Positions 7,172 through 53,034 of a DNA stretch of 64,000 nucleotides are shown here, one piece after another; position 1 is the stretch's first letter; every line of letters begins with the position of its first letter. A model generated the notes under the pieces. The model was not told where the DNA came from. It searched no databases and saw nothing but the letters and a program-made list of their open reading frames with translations. Source of the stretch: a virus; IMG/VR virus record IMGVR_UViG_3300046003_007336, positions 32,001-96,000 of that record; one strand, 5' to 3'. Position numbers and translations under genes: made by a program.

Positions 7172-8865
7172 TGTCTTATGTCGATGCAATGTATGACCGC
7201 GCCAAGGACATCATCCACGTTGTGGAGCGCGTCAATGGTGAGCGAATCTATCGCGAGGACCGGGTAGAACACGTCTTCTACTACGGCCACCCGATGGGGA
7301 CCCACAAGTCGATTTTCGGCGACCCCTGCAAGCGATTCGCCATTCAGGATGGTCGCAAGTTCCGCAGCGAGGTCTTCAAGAAAAAGAAAGCCGGGGTCGA
7401 AATCTTCGAATCCGACATCCGCCCAGAGTTCCGCTATCTGGCCGATCACTACATGGGGGCCGAGACCCCTATCCTCAATGTCGGCTTCTTCGACATCGAG
7501 GCCGACTTCGATCTCGAACGCGGCTTCGCTCCGACCGATGACCCGTTCAACGCCGTGACGGCGATCACGCTGCACATTTCCAGCATGGACCGTCTCTTCA
7601 CCCTGGCCCTCATCCCCCCGACCATGACGCTCGAAGAGGGCATCGCCATCGGGGAGAAGTTCGAAGACACGATGATCTTCGACGATGAAGCGGAGATGCT
7701 GAGCAGTTTCCTCTACCTGATCGAAGACGTCGATGTCCTCTCGGGCTGGAACTCCGAAGGCTACGATATCCCCTACTTGGTCAACCGGGTGAAGCGTCTG
7801 CTCGGCAACGAGGCGTCAAAGCGTTTCTGCCTCTGGGATCAGTTCCCCCGCACGCGCGAGTACCTGAAGTTCGGCAAGGCCTTCAACACCTACGATCTCG
7901 TGGGCCGAGTTCACCTCGACTATCTGCTCCTCTATCAGAAGCACAACCCGCAACAGCTTCACAGCTACCGGCTCGACTACGTGGCTGAGATTGAAGTCGG
8001 GGACAACAAGGTCCCCTACGAGGGAACCCTCGACGATCTCTACAAGAAAGATTTCGAGAAGTTCATCGACTATAACCGCCAGGACGTCGCCCTGCTGGTC
8101 AAGATTGACGCGAAGCGGAAGTTCATCGAGCTAGCCAACCAGATCGCGCACTCAAACTGCGTGTTGCTGAAGACCACGATGGGCTCGGTGGCTCTGGTCG
8201 AGCAGGCGATCATCAACGAGATGCACAATCTGGGCTTCGTCGTGCCAGACCGGGTTCGCGAAGAAAAGCAGGAAAGCCTGCGACCAAAGCTGGCTCCGGC
8301 CGAAGACGATGATGAAGACGAGGATGAAGACGATGAGCGCACGCCCGTCGTCGGTGCCTACGTGGCCAAACCCAAGACGGGCATCCACCGAGAAGTCGCC
8401 TGCGTGGACATCAACTCCCTGTATCCGTCGTGCATCCGCGCGCTCAACATGTCGCCCGAAACCATCTTCGGACAGGTGCGCCCAGATGAGACCATGGCAC
8501 TCGTTCATGAGCGTATTGCGGCCGGGGTTCCGAGAGCAGAAGCATGGGAGGGGTTGTTCTGCACCCTGGAAGTTTCCCATATGATGGACCGGGATGACGC
8601 CCAACTCACGGTGGATTTCGAGGACGGGTCAACGGTTGTGATGACTGGGTCGCAACTTTACGATCTGGTATACGACCCCGCCTCTAGCCTGTGCATAACT
8701 GCAAACGGAACGCTTTTCCGAACCGACAAAGAAGGCATCATTCCCCAGCTTTTGGCGCAATGGTATTCGGAGCGTCAGAGCATGCAGGCGAAGGAAGCTG
8801 CTTTCAAAATTGCAGCCGGTGGCGTCGAGATTGATGACGAACTTGCTGTTTTGCTGGCCAACTAA
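7171..8865 (+). CDS. B-family DNA polymerase, N-terminal part (3'-5' exonuclease, motif A, first fingers helix)
   Basis: ExoI FFDIEAD, ExoII SGWNSEGYDIPYL, ExoIII YNRQDV, motif A DINSLYPSCI, GIIPQLLAQWYSERQ; ORF stops before motifs B and C. Confidence 0.93.
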   Translation: MSYVDAMYDRAKDIIHVVERVNGERIYREDRVEHVFYYGHPMGTHKSIFGDPCKRFAIQDGRKFRSEVFKKKKAGVEIFESDIRPEFRYLADHYMGAETPILNVGFFDIEADFDLERGFAPTDDPFNAVTAITLHISSMDRLFTLALIPPTMTLEEGIAIGEKFEDTMIFDDEAEMLSSFLYLIEDVDVLSGWNSEGYDIPYLVNRVKRLLGNEASKRFCLWDQFPRTREYLKFGKAFNTYDLVGRVHLDYLLLYQKHNPQQLHSYRLDYVAEIEVGDNKVPYEGTLDDLYKKDFEKFIDYNRQDVALLVKIDAKRKFIELANQIAHSNCVLLKTTMGSVALVEQAIINEMHNLGFVVPDRVREEKQESLRPKLAPAEDDDEDEDEDDERTPVVGAYVAKPKTGIHREVACVDINSLYPSCIRALNMSPETIFGQVRPDETMALVHERIAAGVPRAEAWEGLFCTLEVSHMMDRDDAQLTVDFEDGSTVVMTGSQLYDLVYDPASSLCITANGTLFRTDKEGIIPQLLAQWYSERQSMQAKEAAFKIAAGGVEIDDELAVLLAN

Positions 8866-9209: not shown

Positions 9210-9845
9210 ATGACTGACACCACTGCCCCCTCGGGCGAAACCACGAACACCCACATCGGCCTCGTCGCCGACATCGTCGCCGCCTATGTTTCGAACAACA
9301 TCGTGCAGGCGTCGGACCTGGGCACCCTGATCTCGAACGTCGATCAGGCCATGCGCGCCATCGTCGGCGGCACGACCGAGGTCGAGCCCGCCGCCCCCGC
9401 CGAACCGGCCGTGCCGATTCGCAAGTCGATCACCCCCGACTTCCTGATCTGCCTCAACGACGGGCGCAAGTTCAAGTCGCTGAAGCGGCACCTGCGCACC
9501 AAATACAACATGAGCCCGGAAGACTATCGGGCCCAGTGGGGTCTGCCGCGCGACTACCCGATGGTCGCCCCGAACTACGCGCAGGCTCGTTCGGAACTCG
9601 CCAAGTCGATGGGCCTCGGCCGCAAGGCTGGTGAAACCGGCGCCGCCCACTCGGAACGCACCAAGACCGCTCCGAAGGCTTCGGCTCCGAAGGCCGCCGC
9701 CGTGAAGGCTCCGAAGGCCGCCAAGGCTCCGAAAGCCGCCGCGCCGAAGAAGACCGCCTCGAAGGCCGCTCGCCCGGCCAAGACGGTGGAACGCGAGTCC
9801 ACCCAGGCCGCCGCTGATCTGGCCGCCCCGGTTTCCGCCGAATAA
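9210..9845 (+). CDS. mucR: MucR/Ros-family nucleoid-associated regulator with Lys/Ala/Pro-rich C-terminal extension
   Basis: VADIVAAYVSNN...PAVPIRKSITPDFLICLNDGRKFKSLKRHLRT...WGLPRDYPMVAPNYA is the Ros/MucR signature. Confidence 0.93.
   Translation: MTDTTAPSGETTNTHIGLVADIVAAYVSNNIVQASDLGTLISNVDQAMRAIVGGTTEVEPAAPAEPAVPIRKSITPDFLICLNDGRKFKSLKRHLRTKYNMSPEDYRAQWGLPRDYPMVAPNYAQARSELAKSMGLGRKAGETGAAHSERTKTAPKASAPKAAAVKAPKAAKAPKAAAPKKTASKAARPAKTVERESTQAAADLAAPVSAE
9660..9780 (+). repeat. Imperfect coding repeats (gctccgaaggcc/gcc) encoding the KAPKA tail
   Basis: Repeated CCGAAGGC units. Confidence 0.7.
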
Positions 9846-11082: not shown

Positions 11083-11467
11083 TGGCCAAGAAAACGGCCA
11101 AGATCGACGTCGCGATGTGCGAGCGCGTTGCTGGGTCAACCGGCATGCTCGCCATCGTGGCTGGTCTTCGACAGATGAAAGAGTGGGCGGCCCTTCACGA
11201 CCGGACTTTCAAATACGGAGCCCGCTCGATGAGGTTCACATTTGCGAGTTCGGAAACCGCCGATTCATTTCGCGCCACGTTCGGAGAGGCCGAATGAGTC
11301 TGTGGCCCTTCAATCTGTCGCCGAGTTTCTGGACCAACCGGAAGCCCGGCAACGGCAATCGCCGCTACCGGTGCAGTGATAAGACCTGTCCCCACAAGAC
11401 GACCAAGGGCCAACTCAAGGTCAACGGCGGCGTCTGTTTCTCCTGCAAGAGCCCGATAACGCGATGA
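11082..11467 (+). CDS. Two small ORFs (11082-11297 hypothetical; 11294-11467 Cys4 zinc-ribbon-like)
   Basis: Second ORF has CSDKTC...CFSC. Confidence 0.5.
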
Positions 11468-21437: not shown

Positions 21438-21466
21438 TTGACGCCAAATCGTCCTCGAAGTATAAA
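21438..21466 (+). promoter_or_regulatory. sigma70-like promoter of the Ala/Pro tRNA operon
   Basis: TTGACG-N17-TATAAA; also contains TATAAATA. Confidence 0.75.
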
Positions 21467-21475
21467 TAGGACGTT

Positions 21476-21583
21476 ATGTTGATCCTGTTCACCCTCGCTG
21501 CTCTGACCGCAGCCGCTGCCATCGCAGCGGGACAGGCCCCCGTGCGCTTCGCACCAGCCCCGGCTAGCCGACCGCGACCCTAA
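21476..21583 (+). CDS. Putative Ala/Pro-rich leader peptide MLILFTLAALTAAAAIAAGQAPVRFAPAPASRPRP
   Basis: 35 codons with 12 Ala and 5 Pro, between the promoter and tRNA-Ala/Pro genes. Confidence 0.6.
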   Translation: MLILFTLAALTAAAAIAAGQAPVRFAPAPASRPRP

Positions 21584-21666
21584 AGGGTAGCGGTATATAA
21601 GCAGCCAGGATGGTGATCGGCGCGATGCCGATACGTCCAGCAAAACAATCTAGGAAACGTGGCCTT

Positions 21667-21742
<76 letters not shown>

Positions 21743-21767
21743 CGTCCTAGTATTCACGATGTGTCAT

Positions 21768-21844
21768 CGGGGTATAGCTCAGTCTGGTAGAGCACTCGCT
21801 TTGGGAGCGAGGGGTCAAGAGTTCGAATCCCTTTACCCCGACCA
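21768..21844 (+). tRNA. tRNA-Pro(TGG)
   Basis: Cloverleaf, C1-G72, CCA. Confidence 0.95.
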
Positions 21845-21874
21845 CACGTGAATCCTTCAAGGTATCTGCTCAGT

Positions 21875-21948
21875 CGGGGTGTAGCGCAGTCTGGTAGCGC
21901 ACTGGTCTCGGAGTCCAGGGGTCGTAGGTTCGAGTCCTACCGTCCCGA
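21875..21948 (+). tRNA. tRNA-Pro(CGG), CCA not encoded
   Basis: Cloverleaf with CT-CGG-AG loop. Confidence 0.9.
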
Positions 21949-22035
21949 CTGAACAGATAGTTTGATCATCGGGGGAGGCCGTGAGAGGCCAGTGCACTGA
22001 GGTGAAAATCCTCCACCCCCCGTCCAAACCATCTT

Positions 22036-22111
22036 GGGGTCTTAGCTCATCTGGTAGAGCGCAACACTGGCAGTGTTGAGGTGGCGGGTTCGAGTCCCGC
22101 AGATTCCACCA
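22036..22111 (+). tRNA. tRNA-Ala(GGC)
   Basis: Cloverleaf, G3:U70, CCA. Confidence 0.95.
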
Positions 22112-22116
22112 TTCAT

Positions 22117-22215
22117 GGGCGTGTCGGCGACAACGGGGGCTACCCCGCTAGGCCACCTGCGGTCGGCCCGAAAGGGGGCTTCAGGGAGAGGTGCAAGGCC
22201 TCTCGCGTTCCACCA
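22117..22215 (+). ncRNA. Non-canonical tRNA-like RNA with Ala acceptor identity
   Basis: Acceptor GGGCGTG/CGCG(T)TCC with G3:U70 and one bulge, A73, CCA; T-arm AGAGG-TGCAAGG-CCTCT; interior has extra hairpins and no standard D/anticodon arms. Confidence 0.6.
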
Positions 22216-22248
22216 ACCCCGGCGCAATCCCGCGCCACGAGAACCGAT

Positions 22249-22419
22249 ATGGACAAGAAGACGGAGAAGAAAAAGAAGAAACTGCTAGATCGCATCGCCG
22301 AACTGGAAACCGAACTCCGGCAGTCGCTGGGGAAGAAGGATAGTCGCACCGTCGAGATCGACGTGCCGTCCCAGATGCGGAAGATCGCCGATTTGCAGGC
22401 ACAAGTATCGCGGATGTAA
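22249..22419 (+). CDS. Small basic coiled-coil protein within the tRNA cluster
   Basis: MDKKTEKKKKKLLDRIAELETELRQ... Confidence 0.55.
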   Translation: MDKKTEKKKKKLLDRIAELETELRQSLGKKDSRTVEIDVPSQMRKIADLQAQVSRM

Positions 22420-22425
22420 ATCCAC

Positions 22426-22500
22426 GGGGATATAGCTTAACGGGTAAAGCGCGCCCCTCGCACGGGCAAGTCTGCGGTTCGATTCCGCATATCTCCACCA
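22426..22500 (+). tRNA. tRNA-Ala(CGC)
   Basis: Cloverleaf, G3:U70, CCA. Confidence 0.9.
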
Positions 22501-22505
22501 ACAAC

Positions 22506-22577
22506 GGGCGGCACAGCCAGTGCAATGGGAATAAGCTTTCCCAGAAGAGTGGGAGTGGCTCTCCCCTCCGTCCACCA
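22506..22577 (+). ncRNA. Degenerate tRNA-like RNA with Ala acceptor identity
   Basis: GGGCGG/CCGTCC with G3:U70, A73, CCA; hairpins TGGGAA/TTCCCA (loop contains AGC) and GGGAG/CTCCC. Confidence 0.5.
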
Positions 22578-22582
22578 AACAG

Positions 22583-22661
22583 GGGCCAGAGAACCACAGG
22601 CGTGGTTCGACGGTGAAGGGGGTCGCTCCTCCATGGGGTTCGATGCCCCACTGGTCCACCA
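22583..22661 (+). ncRNA. Non-canonical tRNA-like RNA with Ala acceptor identity
   Basis: 7-bp acceptor GGGCCAG/CTGGTCC (G3:U70), A73, CCA; canonical T-arm TGGGG-TTCGATG-CCCCA; 7-bp hairpin in place of the D-arm. Confidence 0.7.
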
Positions 22662-22689
22662 TTTCAACACCAACATCCTGGGAGGATGC

Positions 22690-23544
22690 TATGACACTGC
22701 GGGACGCCTAACAGAGACCTACCGGACTTTCTGCCTCGAACGCGGCATTGAGTTTCATGAGGTCAAGAGTGTGAGACCACACGACAACACGACCTTGTTC
22801 TGCCCTGCGGGGATGCAGCAGTTCAAGGAAGACTACCGGGGACATCGTCGCGGGACCGTATCCAATATTCAGTCCTGCATCCGGCTCAATGATCTGGATG
22901 AAATCGGCGACCAAACCCACCACCTAACCTTCGACATGATCGGGCTGTTTTCGTTCCGTGACATGAGCGTTCTGGAGACCATCGATTTCTGGTTCGAATT
23001 CCTCTCCAAGATTGGCATCAAGCCCGACGTGGTCACCATCCACCCGGACAAGATGCTGGACTGGCGAGAACTCTATCGGGGCCGCGACGTAGAAATACGG
23101 CCGGACCCGGAGTGCACGTGGTCGGACGGCGGCATGGGTGGATACTGCACGGAGTTCTACGTCAGAGGCGTGGAGATCGGCAACATCGTGAATACCAACG
23201 GAGATTCAATCGACGTCGGTTTCGGGATGGAACGCCTTCTCTGGGTTCTCGGCGAAGAAACGCCACCGCGTGGGGACATCCTGGTCCGCACCATCGACCG
23301 CATCGTTGAGTCGGGATACCGGCCCAGCGGCAAGCAGCAGGGTCATGTGCTCCGGCGCCTGATCGGGTTGCTGACAGACGAGGGCAGCCATCCCAACCAC
23401 CCCGAGGTCGTCAGCGAGACGTCCAGACGGGTGAAGCTCTCGGAACGCTTCGACCGCCTTTGGCCGAAGCATCAAGACAAGTCGCCAGAGTGGTGGCTGG
23501 ACACCCACGGTATCGTGGTGTCTGAAATGGTCCTCAGGGTGTAG
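22690..23544 (+). CDS. alaS: Truncated alanyl-tRNA synthetase (aminoacylation domain only); start codon uncertain
   Basis: TTLFCPAGMQQFK, NIQSCIRLNDLDEIGDQTHHLTFDMIGLFSF, GYCTEFY...EIGNIV, IDVGFGMERL, GHVLRRLI; about 285 aa with no editing or C-Ala domains. Confidence 0.85.
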   Translation, partial: YDTAGRLTETYRTFCLERGIEFHEVKSVRPHDNTTLFCPAGMQQFKEDYRGHRRGTVSNIQSCIRLNDLDEIGDQTHHLTFDMIGLFSFRDMSVLETIDFWFEFLSKIGIKPDVVTIHPDKMLDWRELYRGRDVEIRPDPECTWSDGGMGGYCTEFYVRGVEIGNIVNTNGDSIDVGFGMERLLWVLGEETPPRGDILVRTIDRIVESGYRPSGKQQGHVLRRLIGLLTDEGSHPNHPEVVSETSRRVKLSERFDRLWPKHQDKSPEWWLDTHGIVVSEMVLRV

Positions 23545-23609
23545 CTCAGTGGCAGAGCGCACGGTCGGGAATCGTGAGGCCGGGATTTCAAAATTCCCCA
23601 CCCTGACCA
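23535..23609 (+). tRNA. tRNA-Pro(GGG), overlapping the alaS stop codon
   Basis: Cloverleaf, C1-G72, CCA. Confidence 0.88.
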
Positions 23610-23654
23610 TTTCATCTGAACCTCAGCACATGAGGTCCGAAGATAAATAGATGC

Positions 23655-33644: not shown

Positions 33645-33673
33645 TTGACAGCAGGAACCCTCCTCTGTATATT
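33645..33673 (+). promoter_or_regulatory. sigma70-like promoter of the Gly/Glu tRNA operon
   Basis: TTGACA-N17-TATATT. Confidence 0.8.
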
Positions 33674-33682
33674 CGAGAAACT

Positions 33683-33796
33683 ATGACAAACCTGTTCAAC
33701 ACGTCTGGCCTGAACGCCGCCCTCCTGGGCGGTCGCGGTGGCGTGCGCGGTGCTGGGGAACGAGAACGTTCCGCCGGGCTGCGAGGTTGTCTCTAA
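33683..33796 (+). CDS. Putative Gly(/Glu)-rich leader peptide MTNLFNTSGLNAALLGGRGGVRGAGERERSAGLRGCL
   Basis: 37 codons with 9 Gly and 2 Glu, between the promoter and tRNA-Gly/Glu genes. Confidence 0.6.
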   Translation: MTNLFNTSGLNAALLGGRGGVRGAGERERSAGLRGCL

Positions 33797-33867
33797 ACAC
33801 CTCTTCCTTCCTATAGGAACAGTCCGGCGAAGATCACATAGGTTGGCCCCTGTGTGACATTGCTGAT

Positions 33868-33941
33868 GCGGGTGTAGCTCAATGGTAGAGCCGCTGCCTT
33901 CCAAGCAGAAGACGAGAGTTCGATTCTCTCTATCCGCTCCA
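33868..33941 (+). tRNA. tRNA-Gly(TCC)
   Basis: Cloverleaf, U73, CCA. Confidence 0.95.
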
Positions 33942-33956
33942 GCAAATCTCCAGTCT

Positions 33957-34028
33957 GTTCCAGTAGCTTAAAGGCAGAGCAACTGATTTTCAATCAGTCA
34001 GGTGGCGGTTCGACTCCGCTCTGGAATA
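33957..34028 (+). tRNA. tRNA with TTC (Glu) anticodon on an atypical body
   Basis: Cloverleaf ACTGA-TTTTCAA-TCAGT; D-stem GCTT/GAGC; no CCA. Confidence 0.75.
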
Positions 34029-34029
34029 C

Positions 34030-34104
34030 GCGGCTATAGCTCAGTGGTAGAGCGTCTGCTTGCCAAGCAGAAGGTCGGGGGTTCGAGCCCCCCTAGCCGC
34101 TCCA
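34030..34104 (+). tRNA. tRNA-Gly(GCC)
   Basis: Cloverleaf, U73, CCA. Confidence 0.95.
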
Positions 34105-34138
34105 TTCCTCCAACGCATACCCCATTACTCATCTTCGC

Positions 34139-34213
34139 GGTCCCTTCGTCTATCGGTTAGGACGCTAGACTTTCAATCTGGAAAGACGGGTTCGATTCCC
34201 GTAGGGACTACCA
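34139..34213 (+). tRNA. tRNA-Glu(TTC), canonical type
   Basis: GGTCCCTTCGTCTATCGGTTAGGAC body typical of tRNA-Glu, CCA. Confidence 0.95.
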
Positions 34214-34227
34214 AGAATATTGGCTCT

Positions 34228-34302
34228 GTCGCCGTAGCTTAACGGTGGAGCGTCCGCTTCTCAGGCGGTTGGTTGCGAGTTCGATTCTCGTCGGCGACAC
34301 CA
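34228..34302 (+). tRNA. tRNA-Glu(CTC), atypical body
   Basis: Cloverleaf, TT-CTC-AG loop, CCA. Confidence 0.85.
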
Positions 34303-42169: not shown

Positions 42170-42254
42170 TTTCGAAAAGCCCTCGGTCTCACCGGGGGCT
42201 TTTTCAATTCTATTTTTTGGTTGACATAAAATCCGACTTCGGCGATAACGGCGT

Positions 42255-42955
42255 CGAGGTTAACTCGCAACGATAGAGCAACGGCCCGGAGGGACCGGGA
42301 CAGGCAGCGGTGTCTGTTCTAGGCTGACGGCGGCACTCTAGAGGGGCTTGCAGACGGGGATAGGGCCCACCAGCCCGATTCCCCGTCGCCTCAATGTGGT
42401 CAGATGGGTCTCCGTCTGGCATCACCATCCTAACCTTCATGGACGTTGGTGCGTTCGCCGGAGGGACAAGTATGTGAACGCGGCCCTCAAAAGCCGAAAT
42501 GTTGCTGGGTCAGGCGCAGTGCGCGCTGAGACCAAATACTGGAGTTGGGCGGTGGTCCTTCTGACCACATTAGGTCTTTGACATTCGTCGCCTGTCTTTG
42601 ATAGGGCGTAGGTCGATGGTCGGGCCCGTGGTCGCCCGCACTCAAGCGAGTGGTGGGGTTCGATTCCCCGAGGCCCGGTGTAGTTCTCGAATGGATAAGC
42701 GGTTCGTCCCTCATCCGAGATCGTTTGCGCCTACAGGCGACGTCTACTAAAACTAAGGGGCTAGTCCTGGCCCGCTGAGAAGTGTCGCCCGACCAGCCAA
42801 GAGTGCTCCGGGATAGTCGCTCAGCATAAGCCTACAGGACACACCGTGGGGCGCGACACCCCGCGATGAACACGCGTTGCTATTGCGCGTCCGGGAAACA
42901 ACTGTTGGTCCGGTTAACTGGCAAACACTTAGATTAGTCGGGATTTTTTTCCGAC
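42255..42955 (+). ncRNA. Candidate ~700-nt large structured ncRNA with an embedded tRNA-like T-arm module
   Basis: TTGACA promoter at ~42221; long-range pairs AATGTGGTCAGA/TCTGACCACATT and GTCGCCTGT/ACAGGCGAC; GGGG-TTCGATT-CCCC arm. Confidence 0.6.
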
Positions 42956-42959
42956 TTAT

Positions 42960-43391
42960 ACCCTCCCTCTATACCTGTCGGCCCCGATGTGCTGTTTAGA
43001 GCAAAGCATATCCCCGACTGACTGCACCAGATGCGGCTGAAATGCCAAATCGTCTACCCAGTATACAGGCGTATGCTGGGGGTCTTGAGCGCAAGGTCTG
43101 AACGCTTCGGCGTTCCGGTGGGGGAAGGGGGCTCTGTTGGTGGCGCAGATGCGCCTAGGCTGTGGGTCCACGTCAACTGAACGGCCCCATTAGATTTCGG
43201 TGCCAGGGGTGGAAGGCCTTCCTGAACCTGTGGCTGGAGTCTCGAAATGCAGTCGAGGCGGGTAGAAAGCGAAACCGGACTGGGACTGACCCTAGCACCG
43301 GGCCGCGTTGACAAGCACCGCCCCGCAAGCGCGGGTAAGTCGTGTGCGCTTCCTACAGACGAAGGGGCGGGGGAAACCCTGCCCCTTTTTT
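42960..43391 (+). ncRNA. Candidate ~400-nt structured ncRNA ending in a terminator
   Basis: No credible ORF; hairpins such as GAACGC-TTCG-GCGTTC; terminator AAGGGGCGGGG-GAAA-CCCTGCCCCTT followed by a T-run. Confidence 0.45.
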
Positions 43392-43441
43392 TCTTGACAA
43401 GATTTCCGTCCGTGGTAGCAGTACGGAAACAGGAGAGTCTT

Positions 43442-44107
43442 ATGAACCGTCGTACTTTCTTCGCCAGCATTCTCGGCGCCTCAGTTGCGGGCACGCTCGG
43501 CAGTCTCGCAGTTCCCGCATGGGCGCGCGCCGACGAGAGCCTGAACATCTATGTTCGCCTGATCGACCTCCAGAAGGCGATGCTGGCCAACCACGAAACC
43601 TGGAAGAGCGGCCCGGCGTTCGCCCACGTGCCCGAACTCGACGACCCCTTGGATACGCGCCCCGATGTCGAAAAGCGTCGCCGCCACCTCGTCGAACAGC
43701 GAATCGCTGACCGCCACGCGGCCCGCAAGAACTACGATCTGACCCCGGCTGACGCCGTCCTCGCGCACCTGAACGCCCATTTCGCCCCCGACGCCAGCGA
43801 CGTCAGCGAGGCCCTCGTGCGCCAAGCCCGCGCCGAGGCCAACGCGGTTGGCGGCGTGAAAATGTCCAGAACGGATTTCCGTCGCGAGGTCGCCATTGAG
43901 CAGGCTCGGCGAGAAGTCCGGGCCGTGTTCAACCGAGAAATCGAGATCGACACCATGTCGGAGGCCAGCATGCGCCGCGTGCTGAAATCGACGGTCGCCG
44001 TCGCGGTCGTCAAGGGCATGCTGTCGGTGCACAAGATGCCCCTCGACCCCAAGAAGATGGGCGCCTTCAACGAGTTCGCGACGAAGTTCAGGCACATCAT
44101 CCTTTAA
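43442..44107 (+). CDS. Exported protein with twin-arginine (Tat) signal peptide
   Basis: MNRRTFFASILGASVAGTLGSLAVPAWARA; GGAG SD, TTGACA promoter. Confidence 0.7.
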   Translation: MNRRTFFASILGASVAGTLGSLAVPAWARADESLNIYVRLIDLQKAMLANHETWKSGPAFAHVPELDDPLDTRPDVEKRRRHLVEQRIADRHAARKNYDLTPADAVLAHLNAHFAPDASDVSEALVRQARAEANAVGGVKMSRTDFRREVAIEQARREVRAVFNREIEIDTMSEASMRRVLKSTVAVAVVKGMLSVHKMPLDPKKMGAFNEFATKFRHIIL

Positions 44108-44142
44108 CTTGACAGTTTCCGGCCAAGGTGATTAAATAACTG

Positions 44143-44545
44143 CGTGTTGGTGACCAAATCAACCGCTTAGGCAGGACCGGGGTGCGAATCCCCGCGCCTC
44201 CACCAAAAACACATAGCCCGCTGAGATACGCGGGGAGCCGACTGTCATGTAAGCCGGGTTGGGGTTTCTAGAGCCCTGGCTATCAACGGTAGATCGGGGA
44301 CAGTCACAAGGCGGCTAGAGTTCCTTAGCGGGGGCAACAGTCTAGGCTCGCTACGACCGATATGGTCTGTGTGTTTTTGATGGGGGCGAATAGCTATCGA
44401 CTGATAGGCGTAGAGGCGAGAGACACCGGTAAGAAACGACCGAAAATCAGTTCAAATTTCTACCTGCCAACGACAACGTTGACATGGGTTCCTACGCCCT
44501 CGCGGCGTAAGGAACTCGGGGCCCACTGGGGGCCTAGCAACAGAA
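44143..44545 (+). ncRNA. ssrA: Two-piece (circularly permuted) tmRNA
   Basis: Acceptor piece ...GACCGGGGTGCGAATCCCCGCGCCTCCACCA ends at 44205; coding piece starts GGGGGCGAA at 44382 (G3:U70); tag ANDNVDMGSYALAA-stop at 44466-44510. Confidence 0.93.
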
Positions 44546-44635
44546 GGGGAGACTTCGGTCTCCCCACCTTTGTTTCGGTTGACCGTTTCGAAATCTCCGA
44601 CTAAACCGGTCTACGAAATAATCCGAGAAAAGCCC

Positions 44636-47826: not shown

Positions 47827-48421
47827 ATGCGGATAGGCACCAAGGTTGAGCCCGAAGAGCTATCTTCCAAAATTCGTCCGATCATCATCCGTCGAAATAC
47901 ATGTGCCGACGAATGGGATGTTCGCCACAGATTCGTGGTAGAACATCTCTGTCGTGGGGACTGGGCGGGCACACTGGAGTTCTGCTACTTCAAGCATGAA
48001 GAAAACTTCGCCGTTGATTTTCTCAGCGGGGCCTACGATGCCTACCTGTACTATTTCTCCGACGAGGCCGACCGTGTCGAGTTCCAACTCCGTTTTTGCT
48101 GACTGTCCTCCTGGGCTGGGCCGACCTGGGCTAGAACGGTACATCCTCCGTGGTGAATTCACCACCATCTATATCCGAATCAGAGACGTATGGCTGCCGC
48201 ACGGATGGGTACGAAATAAACTCTGTCGAGCCGACTGGATGATGCGGATGTGGGGTGACCGTCATCGCGACGAGAAACAATGCACCTGTCCAGTGGGAAC
48301 CACGGCCTTTATGTTCGAAAGCCCTTCGGATGCCATGGAGTTCTTCATCCGCTTCGGCGCATATACGGTTTCTCCAAATTCGACGAAAAAACATATTGAC
48401 CAAACGTCGGAAGATAAATAA
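47827..48421 (+). CDS. Two small hypothetical ORFs (47827-48102; ~48095-48421)
   Basis: Contain YYFSDEADRVEFQLRF and FMFESPSDAMEFFIRF motifs. Confidence 0.5.
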
Positions 48422-48462
48422 GATCAGGAAATCGGTCGCACTGACGCGGCCCAAGGATTCGA

Positions 48463-48513
48463 ATGATGCGTTCGCTGCTGTTGCTTAGTTTGGGTGTTCG
48501 ACTGTCGGCCTAA
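48463..48513 (+). CDS. Putative Leu-rich leader peptide MMRSLLLLSLGVRLSA
   Basis: AAGGA SD; 6 Leu in 16 codons including four in tandem (CTG CTG TTG CTT); upstream of six tRNA-Leu genes. Confidence 0.7.
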   Translation: MMRSLLLLSLGVRLSA

Positions 48514-48618
48514 GGGCTTCCGGTTTCGAGCACCCGTGAAACTAGGCACGGACTGCGATCTTCCATTCGGGACAAGCTCCCAAATCTGAAATCCAGTGAC
48601 TGTGCACCAGCAGTGTAT

Positions 48619-48703
48619 GTCGGTGTGGCGGAATTGGCAGACGCACCAGATTTAGGTTCTGGCGCCGCAAGGCGTGAAGGTTCGACCCCTTTCACCGATA
48701 CCA
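48619..48703 (+). tRNA. tRNA-Leu(TAG)
   Basis: Type II cloverleaf, A73, CCA. Confidence 0.95.
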
Positions 48704-48724
48704 CTGCTCCTACTCATCGTTATT

Positions 48725-48812
48725 GGCCGTCTGCATGGAATTGGTAGACAGCACCGGCTCAGAACCGGTGGTCCGAAAGGGCGTCAGAGTTCGAGTCTCT
48801 GGGCGGCCACCA
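48725..48812 (+). tRNA. tRNA-Leu(CAG)
   Basis: Type II cloverleaf, CCA. Confidence 0.92.
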
Positions 48813-48826
48813 ACGGCGATATCTCA

Positions 48827-48912
48827 GCCTCCTTGGTGAAATGTAGACACGCAGTCCTCAGAAGGCTGTGCTCGTAAAGGGCGTGCCAGTTCGTTCCTGG
48901 CAGGAGGCACCA
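48827..48912 (+). tRNA. tRNA-Leu(CAG), second divergent copy
   Basis: Type II cloverleaf, CCA. Confidence 0.9.
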
Positions 48913-48924
48913 AGATTCCTTCAT

Positions 48925-49010
48925 CCCCTCGTGGTGAAATGTAGACACGCAGTCTTGAGAGGGCTGTGCCTGTAATGGGTGTGCGGACTCGTTATCCGCC
49001 GAGGGGACCA
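48925..49010 (+). tRNA. tRNA-Leu(GAG)
   Basis: Type II cloverleaf, unusual T-loop CTCGTTA, CCA. Confidence 0.85.
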
Positions 49011-49012
49011 AT

Positions 49013-49090
49013 GCCGGGGTGATGGGAAATGGTATACCTCCAGTCCTCAAAATTCTGGGTTTGCGGGTTCGAGTCCCGCCTCCGGCACCA
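49013..49090 (+). tRNA. tRNA-Leu(CAA), short variable arm
   Basis: Cloverleaf with weak anticodon stem, CT-CAA-AA loop, CCA. Confidence 0.8.
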
Positions 49091-49092
49091 AT

Positions 49093-49169
49093 CCCCGCGT
49101 AGCGCAAATGGTAGAGGCATCCGGTTTAAGCCCGGTTCAGTGTGGGTTCGAATCCCTCCGTGGGGACCA
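49093..49169 (+). tRNA. tRNA-Leu(TAA), short variable arm
   Basis: Cloverleaf, TT-TAA-GC loop, CCA. Confidence 0.85.
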
Positions 49170-49212
49170 TTTCATGGTTGACCCAAAAAAACCTCCCCGC
49201 TAGGGTCGAAGG

Positions 49213-51734
49213 ATGAACGCTGAACGCACCATCTACATGGCCTGTGACGCTACTGACGAGGTAAGCGATTGCCGCTATTGCCAGTGGCGCGGTCGTGTCG
49301 CAGAGTATCTCGAAGAAAGAAAGAGCCCCGACAGGAATCCAAATTTCAGAATGGGCCGCGACCTCGCGATCATCGAGTTCAAAACATCTGCCGCGATGGG
49401 GGAGTTCATCCTCCAGTTTGGCGAGGCCTGTCTTACCCGCGAGACCTGTTCTGGGCTCCTGGACCACTTGCGAGTCCGAAGAAAGGCCTTCAACGACGCC
49501 GAAGAGGCGGAGCAGGAGAAGGAACTACTCGAACAGGAACAACGAATCCGAGACGAGGAAAACCAACGCGCGGCCTGACCCCTTTACATCCGATCACGTT
49601 TTTGTTAGAAACCGGGTGAGGGGTTCCTCAAGCCGGAGCAAAAGCTTTTGTTGAATTGGATTGGTCGGCTGGTCGGCCGCGAGAAACGCGATGCCGTCCC
49701 GATCACTGCGTCTTTCCCGGAACTGAGATCGTTCCTGCCTTCGACTGATGAAAGCGGACGCGTAGAAGCCCCCGCTGTTCCAGCGGAGATCATCGTCCTC
49801 GCCGACCGTTCGGTCGCGCCAGTGAAGCCAGCAGCGGAGAAAGCCGCGTTGCGGGTGAGACCTCTCAAGAAACCCGACTACGCTGCCGCCCTTGAGCTTC
49901 TGGGGGGCATGGAGCATTCCCAGCGGTGTCTTCTGCTCAACATCAGGTCCCTCGGCCAAACCATCTACCATATTCGCCCCGATGGTTGGCTTGAGACGTC
50001 GCCGATCAACATCACGCGGGTGATAATCAAGGACTGGAAAGAGCCCCTGGAGGCCCTACAGAGCCTTGGAGCCATCGAGGCGACCGTGGGCCCGGAAATG
50101 GTCTGTGTGCGCTCCACGGAGCACTCAGAGGCCATCAAGGCGGCATGGGTCGCCCTACCTCCGCAGATCGAGCCCAAGCCGTATGTGAAACCCGGCCGGA
50201 CGGGGCGGCGCGGCCCACCCTGAGGCTAAATACGACCAGTCCCATTTGGAGTTCTGGTTCGTGTTCAATAAATCTTCGCCGATGTTCCGAGGTGCCTTCA
50301 CGACCGTCCTGGTCGCGTTGATCATCTTCTCGGCAGCCTACTTCGCCTCGGTGGAGTTCGCCCAGACCAAGCTGTCTCTGTTCAAATGGTATGAACGCCC
50401 CTATGTGACCAACGCCGAGGGTGTGCAGACGACGCAGTTCCGCGCCGGAGACGCGTTCGTGGTCAACTATTTCGTCGAGCGCGAACCGCTGAAGTGCTGG
50501 GCTGTCTTCACCAACGTTCTCACCGGCCCGGTCTCCTACCAGCTTCCTGCGACTCGCAGCCAAGTCATCACCAAGACGCGCATCCGTGTGCCGCTGAAGA
50601 TGTATGAGGAACTTCCGGCCCAGCTTCCTGCTGGACAATATCGTCTTTCACAAATCGTTTATCCGACGTGCGGGAACGTCCACATGCTACCGTTCAAGCT
50701 CGAAACAGGCATCGTCCTCGACGTGCTGAAGAAGGATGCTCCGAAACCCGTCGTGGTCACCATCCAGCGCGAGCGCGATCTCTACGAGCCCGACTTCGTG
50801 GTCGCGCCTGATCAGTCTGGCGACATCACGGTCCCGCCGTCGCTCTGATCTCGGGTCCAGTGCTGAAGTGCAAGGTCTTCCAGGAAGACCAGCGCAGCGT
50901 CACGAGACGTAAAAGATTTCACGATTTTGACGGGGTGACGAAGGCACATGTGGACGGTCTCGCCCCATAGGCGGATTACGCCAAAGCCCTCATAGCGACC
51001 GTTCCCCAAGGAACGAGTCCATCGACGCATCGTGCGTCGGTTCGGATTATAGGTGTGTTGGTCCTCGCAACCGAGCAACTCAGCACACCGCAGGTAGAAC
51101 CCTTCTACCCCAGCTTCATTCATTTTCATCGCGAGTATTTATGGCACCCTACTCGCGGATTGTCAAGTTAAGACCTGGATGGGCGTTTTCTTCTCCGCAA
51201 CGAAGAAAGCCGCTCGGACTTCTCCGAACGGCCTTTGCGGGTGTAGAGCTTCTTGCTCGGGATGACCTGTTGTTTCAGGTGTGGTGATCGCAACGCTTGT
51301 GCAATCGGGTCTCGTTTCTTCTTCACTGTTCTGTTCCTTTACGGGGTGGAATGAATATTTACTTACCCTGATCAGTATGTCAGGATTCCGGTATGGATAT
51401 CCTTGAAAAAGCCGAACATCATGGATATCAAGCAGTCAGTGATATCGTTCCGCGTGGCTATTCAGAGGCAGATACGTTCATCAACGACATGATAGTCCTG
51501 CATCAGGCCGGATACGTTTACCGCATTTCGTATGCGTTCGACAATATGGACGATTGGGAATCGGCTAATCGACCGTACATCGAGGCCATTCAGCAACTTA
51601 TCGAAGAACAAGTCGTTCTCAAACCATGGACGGTTTGCCACTATCCTACCGGAATTTACGGAAGGACGACCGTGACGGTTCTGCTCTTCACCTCATACAA
51701 GGATTTCGTTTACTTCAAAATGATGATCGTCTGA
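49213..51734. CDS. Hypothetical ORFs 49213-49578(+), 49648-50223(+), ~50246-50848(+, N-terminal TM, late promoter), 50812-51129(-), 51393-51734(+)
   Basis: ORF track plus promoter and SD context. Confidence 0.55.
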
Positions 51735-51780
51735 CTTTCTTTTTTGAGTAATGGACCCGGACTCGCTATGTTGGGTTCAT

Positions 51781-53034
51781 ATGAGCAACCTCGCAGAACT
51801 GGTCAAAGCCCGAGACGTAGACGCCATTCGGTCCTACATGGCGGAGCACAATCTGAAGCTCGACGGGCTCCAGATCGTCCCCGCCGATGCTGCAACCAAG
51901 AAGAGCCTGAAGGCTCAGGAGGACTTCTGGAACCAGCGTCAGCAGGCCAGGAAGATTCTACTCAACTCCCTCTACGGCGCGCTCCTCAATGAAGGCCTGC
52001 GCTTCTATGACGAACGCCTCGGCCAGTCCGTAACCCTGACCGGTCGATCTATCGTTCGGCACATGAACGCCAAGTCCAACGAAGTCATCACCGGAGAGTA
52101 TGACTACATGGGCCGCGCTATCGTCTACGCGGATACCGACTCCTGCTATTTCTCCGCCTACGAAATCCTGAAAGAAGACCCCGCCTACGCGGACTTCGAA
52201 TGGACGCGGGAGAACATCATCTCCCTCTACGACAACATCTCCGACGTCGTGAACGAATCCTTCCCCGAGTTCATGCAACGGTCGTTCAACACCACGCTTG
52301 AGCGCGGCGCCATCATTGCGGCCGGTCGCGAACTCGTGGCTTCAAGCGGTCTCTTCATCAAGAAGAAGAAATACGCCGTGCTCATGTATGACAAGGACGG
52401 CACCCGGCTGGACAAGGGCAATAGCCCCGGCAAGCTGAAGGCCATGGGTCTGGACCTCAAGCGGGCCGACACCCCGAAGTACATGCAGAAATTCCTCGAA
52501 GGCCTCCTGATGGATGTCCTCCAGGATGGCTCGAAGGCGGTCGCGTTCGATCAGATCAGAGAGTTCCGCGTCGGCTTCAAAGCACGCCCCTCGTGGGAGA
52601 AGGGCGCCCCGAAGGCCGTGAAGGGCCTGTCCGTCTATGGGGACAAGCTCAGCAAGTCGCACAAGGTCGGGGTGATGTCCAAGGAGGGCAAGTCCAAGGT
52701 CAACATGCCCGGCCACGTTCGGGCCTCGCTGAACTGGAACACCCTCTGCGAACTCAACGACGACCGCTACACGCCTCGCATCACGGACGGGACCCGTATC
52801 GTCGTCTGCCCCTTGAAGTCCAACGCGCTCCGCATGGATTCCATCTCCTACCCGATTGACGTTGACGCCAACCATCTCCCCCGCTGGTTCAAAGAACTCC
52901 CGTTCGATGAAGCCGCGATGGAAGACAAGATTATTGATTTCAAGCTCAAGAACCTTCTAGGTGTATTGGATTGGAACCTGCAAGACACCAAAGACATACC
53001 GGGTGAAGAGTTCTTCACCTTTGAGGAATACTAA
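51781..53034 (+). CDS. B-family DNA polymerase, C-terminal part (second fingers helix, palm, thumb)
   Basis: Motif B QQARKILLNSLYGALLN, TLTGR, motif C IVYADTDS, KKKYA, KAMGLDLKRADTP. Confidence 0.93.
   Translation: MSNLAELVKARDVDAIRSYMAEHNLKLDGLQIVPADAATKKSLKAQEDFWNQRQQARKILLNSLYGALLNEGLRFYDERLGQSVTLTGRSIVRHMNAKSNEVITGEYDYMGRAIVYADTDSCYFSAYEILKEDPAYADFEWTRENIISLYDNISDVVNESFPEFMQRSFNTTLERGAIIAAGRELVASSGLFIKKKKYAVLMYDKDGTRLDKGNSPGKLKAMGLDLKRADTPKYMQKFLEGLLMDVLQDGSKAVAFDQIREFRVGFKARPSWEKGAPKAVKGLSVYGDKLSKSHKVGVMSKEGKSKVNMPGHVRASLNWNTLCELNDDRYTPRITDGTRIVVCPLKSNALRMDSISYPIDVDANHLPRWFKELPFDEAAMEDKIIDFKLKNLLGVLDWNLQDTKDIPGEEFFTFEEY

Follow-up and report, generated by a model that had tools for sequence, protein, structure and literature searches.

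Results

The Leu Unit and Its Source Phage

The window analyzed here, a stretch of 64,000 nt, is contained in a 198.5-kb linear virus record (CheckV completeness 44%) whose phage sequence occurs in lake-water metagenomes. Within it, six tRNA-Leu genes lie behind a short, leucine-rich open reading frame, hereafter the Leu leader (Table 1). By its family-B DNA polymerase, the nearest cultured phages are Agrobacterium phage Atu_ph07 (55%) and Sinorhizobium phage Phosso (52%). Because of this kinship and a permuted two-piece tmRNA of the alphaproteobacterial type, the source appears to be a T4-like jumbo phage, probably with an alphaproteobacterial host. The C-terminal part of a family-B DNA polymerase is encoded on its own at 51751-53034 (+), comparable with the two-gene polymerase of Atu_ph07, and a search for viral relatives of the subtilase flanking the Leu block found none. 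The stretch 42220-43395 (+), about 1.15 kb without a long plus-strand ORF, lies between a promoter-like site with TTGAC and, at 43360-43392, a strong terminator with a U-tract; it has apparently many short inverted repeats and no Rfam match, and is a candidate large non-coding RNA.

All the well-supported tRNA genes of the contig lie inside the window, in the Ala/Pro, Gly/Glu and Leu blocks and as a lone tRNA-Met that stands directly behind its own promoter with no leader between. The TAAATA motif, the AAGGA ribosome-binding site, the 16-codon ORF with four tandem and six total Leu codons, and both arms of the 10-bp helix overlapping the 3' half of the ORF, all of which an initial sequence-only reading had pointed out, were confirmed. 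The putative promoter, a consensus match only, is the sole promoter-like match in 48200-49400, where 0.8 would be expected by chance, and transcription is predicted to start near 48426-48431. TTGAC with a -10-like or TAAAT-containing box also precedes the other tRNA blocks, the tRNA-Met and the tmRNA.

The Leu run, CTG CTG TTG CTT, occupies codons 5-8 of the leader and is followed by TTG at codon 10 and CTG at codon 14, giving CTG three times, TTG twice and CTT once. The phage's commonest Leu codon, CTC, is avoided; TTG, used twice, makes up 7% of the phage's Leu codons, and CTA and TTA are missing, though the block holds TAG and TAA tRNAs. Among 20,000 random 350-nt stretches of the phage genome, 0.24% contained an equally strong Leu-enriched short ORF (empirical p = 0.002) and 0.25% a run of four Leu. 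A contig from another lake-water run spans 48082-48654 with an identical leader; the leader is therefore not an assembly artefact. Pattern searches of viral contigs found no orthologue, blastn against cultured phages gave matches to the tRNAs only, and the contig itself holds no orthologue or copy elsewhere; the scan of one metagenome returned a single match (contig L176), with its upstream part cut off. An Rfam scan of 48000-49400, up to E = 10, gave no match to Leu_leader, T-box, riboswitch or any other leader.

The six tRNA-Leu genes that had been read behind the leader hold up, five being called by ARAGORN and tRNA-Leu(GAG), called by neither ARAGORN nor Rfam, being recognized by hand. Its manual cloverleaf has a 7-bp acceptor stem, A73, CCA and a long variable arm, and a gene of contig L176 that shares its D-loop is called tRNA-Leu(GAG). 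The second CAG gene and the GAG gene have the same single-G D-loop and T-loop without A58, a type also seen in L176; the CAA and TAA genes are without the long variable arm, and the CAA gene has anticodon-stem mismatches as well. The flanks of tRNA-Leu(TAG), 48610-48615 and 48702-48707, are complementary. Such complementary 5' and 3' flanks lengthen the acceptor stem in several tRNA genes (window 21650-23620, 33858-33945 and 48610-48710), and flank-extended stems reach 13 bp in the phage genome G002 (L056 1074-1247).

Table 1. Features of the Leu unit, its sister units and the phiCbK leaders; positions are those of the window except in the last row, and promoters and helices are predicted.
Feature	Position	Strand	Remarks
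sigma70-type promoter, TTGACC-17-TAAGAT	48396..48424	+	consensus match; TAAATA 48415-48420 overlaps
Small 5' hairpin	48434-48451	+	just upstream of the Shine-Dalgarno sequence
Shine-Dalgarno sequence, AAGGA	48453..48457	+	5 nt to first ATG, 8 nt to second
Leu leader ORF	48463..48513	+	16 codons, 6 Leu
Helix A	48492-48501 : 48526-48535	+	encloses stop codon
Helix B	core 48534-48538 : 48547-48551, extended 48530-48556	+	competes with A; -9.7 kcal/mol
Long spacer hairpin C	48546..48605	+	favoured in stalled state
tRNA-Leu(TAG)	48619..48703	+	ARAGORN
tRNA-Leu(CAG) 1	48725..48812	+	ARAGORN
tRNA-Leu(CAG) 2	48827..48912	+	ARAGORN; single-G D-loop, T-loop without A58
tRNA-Leu(GAG)	48925..49010	+	read by hand; non-canonical D and T loops
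tRNA-Leu(CAA)	49013..49090	+	ARAGORN; short variable loop
tRNA-Leu(TAA)	49093..49169	+	ARAGORN; short variable loop
Permuted two-piece tmRNA	44105-44601	+	alphaproteobacterial type
Ala/Pro unit	21438..23609	+	promoter, leader, tRNA-Ala x3, tRNA-Pro x3, short AlaRS-domain gene
Ala/Pro leader	21476-21583	+	35 codons, 12 Ala, 5 Pro; near-leaderless
Gly/Glu unit	33645..34302	+	promoter, leader, tRNA-Gly x2, tRNA-Glu x3
Gly/Glu leader	33683-33796	+	37 codons, 9 Gly, 2 Glu; near-leaderless
phiCbK codon-matched ORFs ahead of tRNA groups (JX100813, L177)	8082-8144, 9541-9678, 11342-11440		three ORFs; by inspection

Matched Leaders of Other tRNA Blocks

Each of the three multi-tRNA blocks of the contig has a matched leader, and each leader scores for its own block only, with empirical p values, against random stretches of the phage genome, of 0.0004 for the Ala/Pro leader and 0.003 for the Gly/Glu leader. 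These two leader ORFs begin about 9 nt past the -10 box. The Gly/Glu leader is conserved in the phage genomes G001 and G002 (about 66% polymerase identity), both arms of its helix being invariant in the three phages and its loop diverged. The Ala/Pro block also encloses a short AlaRS catalytic-domain gene (PF01411, about 284 aa; 22690-23544, +), to which short forms from Rhizobium, Caulobacteraceae and viral contigs are 50-61% identical, the viral relatives standing mostly without tRNA blocks, and CCA-ending tRNA-like elements (22117-22661, +) that ARAGORN does not call at its default score.

The matched-leader design was found in five further phage genomes, two related and three unrelated. 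The related ones, G001 (561 kb) and G002 (415 kb), were picked on DNA-polymerase similarity alone (66%). Permutation of amino-acid labels among blocks gave p ≤ 0.001 in the present contig (G000) and in G001, G002, G008, G009 and G010, of which the unrelated G008, G009 and G010 were reached by the tandem tRNA-Leu pattern and noticed since one block scored high. In G001 and G002 the sorted blocks with matched leaders comprise Gly/Glu(/Asp), Ser/Cys/His(/Tyr), Ile/Gln/Pro/Asn, Arg/Leu/Lys/Trp, Arg(TCT,CCT), Thr(CGT) and others. G008 has a Leu-only block behind a Leu-rich leader, G009 and G010 contain four and five matched-leader units, respectively, and Leu-matched leaders precede Leu-containing blocks in G009, G010, G001 and G002. 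In three genomes, leaders ahead of Arg(TCT/CCT) pairs draw on AGA/AGG; hence the matching extends to the codon level. Cognate-codon enrichment in relatives, named beforehand as a test on which the idea could fail, was thus seen in most blocks of five genomes.

As side observations, the leaders of G008 (L174, reverse strand, blocks at 2862 and 4844) stop 20 and 8 nt before the first tRNA, so near that there is no room for a terminator. In G009 (L171, L172), two tRNA blocks with a matched leader apiece are transcribed back to back, and a duplicated leader precedes a lone tRNA-Leu(CAG) elsewhere. In G001 a tRNA-Leu(TAG) gene directly follows a promoter-like sequence and has no leader.

Label permutation was not significant for the mixed arrays of Atu_ph07, Phosso, G006 and G007 and was marginal for that of G005 (p = 0.03); no matched leaders were found in Atu_ph07 and Phosso, which are nearest by polymerase among cultured phages. 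Of 68 tandem tRNA-Leu clusters in bacteria, none is headed by a comparable leader (best score 2.8, against 3.3-3.5 for the Leu leader). In the cultured phage phiCbK, gp083 alone of the three codon-matched ORFs is annotated, as a hypothetical protein; its residues are nearly all Pro, Thr, Lys, Leu, His, Ala or Ser, and it is followed by a terminator and exactly those tRNAs. The two unannotated ORFs precede Phe/Val/Ile/Gln/Arg and Glu/Asp tRNA groups, and two of the matched ORFs stand before annotated terminators.

Predicted Two-State Fold of the Leu Leader

Alternative-structure folding of the leader region, which the sequence-only reading had suggested, gave a two-state geometry of helix A against helix B. 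Helix A is predicted, at a probability of about 0.7-0.9 or higher, as long as the ribosomal A-site is at codons 2-7; from codon 8 onward it is lost and hairpin B is predicted instead. The switch point lies at about the third Leu of the run, and the fourth Leu, Leu10 and Leu14 all lie past it; it moves by one codon for ribosome footprints of +11 to +15. The mutually exclusive helices set by ribosome position are a computed feature. The stalled-state fold is more stable than those of synonymous recodings of the ORF (p = 0.011) and weakly more stable than those of spacer shuffles (p = 0.09), helix A being borderline. Helix B is weak, and its 3' tail is not a U-tract. A two-state switch at the same relative place is predicted for the Leu leader, the Ala/Pro leader and the three Gly/Glu leaders; in the Ala/Pro and Gly/Glu leaders, a long helix between ORF and spacer is maintained over the cognate codons and is then replaced by a hairpin in the spacer, ahead of the first tRNA. 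The arrangement of the two competing folds matches that of an antiterminator and a terminator.

The terminator search found no U-tract terminator between the Leu leader and the tRNAs, bearing out the earlier observation. The phage carries such terminators elsewhere, but none of its three leaders (Leu, Ala/Pro, Gly/Glu) has one. No clear rut-like skew was found in the 105-nt spacer (30 C, 27 G); unpaired C residues rise from 3 to 5 between the two states of the Leu leader, and the rise is larger for the G001 and G002 Gly/Glu leaders, from 3 to 7 and 4 to 9. Invasion of the first tRNA acceptor stem by the Leu leader was considered and rejected (rank p = 0.58); across 15 leaders, pairing between leader and tRNA 5' end gave a Fisher p of 0.03, uncorrected for G+C.

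Predicted Polarity of Terminator-Bearing Leaders

A G+C hairpin with a U-tract closes ten leaders of G001, G002 and G010, 25-36 nt past the stop codon. Their nascent RNA was folded co-transcriptionally with the ribosome at every codon, since the switch of several leaders is masked when equilibrium folding includes the whole terminator. In every one of the ten, the terminator's 5' arm was computed to be sequestered over the cognate stretch and freed shortly after, the antiterminator probability being high across the cognate codons and dropping right after them. The polarity predicted for leaders with a terminator is thus the classical one, a stall leading to read-through, as in the trpL/leuL geometry, in which read-through follows from slow decoding (PMC1183508). 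The same simple metric gives no switch for gp083 of phiCbK, with its stop codon 68 nt from the terminator. G001, G002, G008 and G009 likewise have leaders without a terminator, which therefore form a class rather than the decay of one genome.

Discussion

The Leu leader resembles a leader-peptide attenuator without two of its classical features, the intrinsic terminator and the enzyme targets, and without an Rfam model. A short ORF with a ribosome-binding site is present at the 5' end of the unit behind a promoter-like site, and its tandem cognate codons exceed chance, singly and in the block-label permutation. The intrinsic terminator, absent here, is present in the ten leaders of G001, G002 and G010 and annotated in phiCbK. 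The target is six tRNA-Leu genes instead of an enzyme or synthetase; only the Ala/Pro block holds a synthetase-domain gene. We consider it probable, at about 80%, that the Leu leader is a functional sensor, in which the ribosome gauges the supply of leucyl-tRNA and thereby switches the tRNA-Leu genes behind it. The proposal of the sequence-only reading, that the phage senses Leu-tRNA supply to switch its own tRNA operon, gains support from the matched leaders and the predicted stall-to-read-through polarity.

A plausible model for the Leu unit is as follows. Host RNA polymerase would start near 48430 and a ribosome would load at the Shine-Dalgarno sequence, the sequences being observed and their activity presumed. 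Under slow Leu decoding, the ribosome would dwell on codons 5-7, leaving 48492-48501 free for helix A to form; under fast decoding, it would melt helix A and allow hairpin B (48530-48556) to form. By extension from the ten terminator-bearing leaders in three other phages, a stall would mean ON and run-through OFF. In the last and least certain step, since there is no U-tract at the Leu leader, hairpin B would most likely cause a pause at which Rho, a Nus factor or a phage factor terminates transcription prematurely. If the block is regulated, factor-dependent termination seems a slightly better than even bet as the output, with processing or decay a weaker candidate and any other output improbable.

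A stalled ribosome cannot distinguish an uncharged from a missing tRNA. Loss or shortage of tRNA is the likelier signal than leucine starvation, because extra tRNA does not cure leucine starvation, and codon-level matching fits the sensing of tRNA shortage. Such a shortage could come from cleavage or decay of host tRNA or from phage codon demand. As the product is the sensed tRNA, the loop would be one of negative feedback. Cleavage of host tRNA by defence systems is, by analogy, one plausible cause: the tRNA-Lys of T5 rescues infection after host tRNA cleavage by PARIS (PMC11464382), which gives a phage reason to sense tRNA loss. Phage tRNAs have also been described as counter-defence, including retron evasion (PMC10264068, PMC11555353); in their available parts, these papers treat the function of phage tRNAs, and the leaders described here concern codon-sensing control of their expression.

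Among the alternatives, the one that survives best, though unlikely, is that the leader is a translated sensor acting after transcription, with ribosome position deciding between RNase E/P maturation and degradation of the precursor. The three leaders of the phage without a U-tract would suit it, as would the small room left for termination by the G008 leaders, with 9-21 nt to the first tRNA in two blocks, and by the Arg and Thr leaders, which stop 21-34 nt before the first tRNA, and the reach of the spacer folds to the 5' flank of the first tRNA, itself able to pair with the 3' trailer. It is opposed by the ten leaders of the same design that end in plain intrinsic terminators and by the failure of leader pairing with the tRNA 5' end at the Leu unit; moreover, a misfolded first tRNA would not easily silence five others. 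By analogy with mgtL and corL, factor-dependent termination at a pause hairpin is favoured over such processing control.

That the Leu leader is a decayed, non-switching relic, of a design real in the group whose terminator was lost here and whose block is constitutive, is improbable. The missing terminator and orthologue and the weak helix B would agree with decay, as would the leaderless tRNA-Leu(TAG) of G001; however, the leader keeps its promoter, Shine-Dalgarno sequence, open frame, Leu run and switch position intact, and terminator-less leaders form a conserved class, as the Gly/Glu leaders of three phages with their invariant helix arms illustrate. That the ORF arose by chance, or encodes a small hydrophobic peptide with a separate function and a Leu run unrelated to the tRNAs, is very improbable and already largely refuted at the system level: Leu is common, the hydrophobic 16-mer resembles a signal-peptide core and the single-locus p is just 0.002, but the three blocks of the contig independently match their own amino acids (product of the three leader p values about 3e-9) and the pattern recurs across phages and is absent before host tRNA-Leu clusters.

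Reading the Leu leader as a sensor of tRNA supply places it beside the leuL, trpL, hisL, thrL, ilvL and pheM attenuators, with which it shares a short 5' ORF with tandem cognate codons, competing helices chosen by the ribosome, and the predicted turning on of the operon by slow decoding (PMC1183508). Multivalent leaders such as thrL and ilvL parallel those matched to multi-amino-acid blocks. In contrast to classical attenuators, which target enzymes or synthetases, the phage leaders precede tRNA genes sorted by amino acid, whose product is the molecule sensed. Restructuring of a leader by translation of an upstream ORF, without an intrinsic terminator, is likewise known from mgtL/mgtA and corL/corA of Salmonella and tnaC of E. 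coli; in mgtA and corA, a Rut site is exposed and pausing promoted when translation is complete (PMC12360218). The signals there are Mg2+ or free Trp and the targets are protein genes, whereas no convincing rut site was found at the Leu leader.

Runs of cognate codons also stand without an intrinsic terminator in the cys leaders and the LEU element of Actinobacteria (PMC1262725), and the polycysteine sORFs treated in the available part of 10.1101/834739 are leaderless, like the Ala/Pro and Gly/Glu leaders. These Actinobacterial Cys and Leu leaders precede protein genes, where translation initiation is a possible output, which is impossible for tRNA genes. A caution comes from Streptomyces, in which mutation of the Leu codons of similar leaders left regulation unchanged (PMC1262725). 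Accessory tRNAs are likewise induced by translational stress in the trn operon of Anabaena (PMC8421152, PMC10272220), which is one mixed array under a protein repressor, TrcR, unlike the codon-specific RNA sensor per amino-acid block proposed here; neither "leader" nor "attenuation" occurs in PMC8421152. Our search of the literature, with incomplete coverage of subscription papers, found no description of leader-peptide control of tRNA genes, in agreement with the sequence-only reading, which knew of none.

Beyond the Leu unit, we tentatively propose, as a generalization with somewhat less than even odds, a modular closed-loop tRNA supply in large phages of several unrelated groups, in which each block would be gated by a mini-ORF of its own codons and only cleaved or short tRNAs would be replaced, the terminator-less class working through an undescribed U-tract-free termination or processing gating. 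Why phages carry tRNAs is a long-open question, with codon compensation and counter-defence as the contending answers. A codon-reading switch per block implies on-demand tRNAs, with slow decoding of specific codons as the trigger, and would explain the sorting of tRNA genes by amino acid in some phages. With it, ribosome-mediated attenuation would reach beyond enzymes and synthetases to include tRNA genes, in a feedback loop in which the product is what is sensed, and the terminator-less class may show a further route coupling the ribosome to the fate of non-coding RNA. The leaders offer compact reporters of tRNA depletion by anticodon nucleases, and the same layout in phiCbK, which grows on Caulobacter, makes the idea testable in a cultured system.
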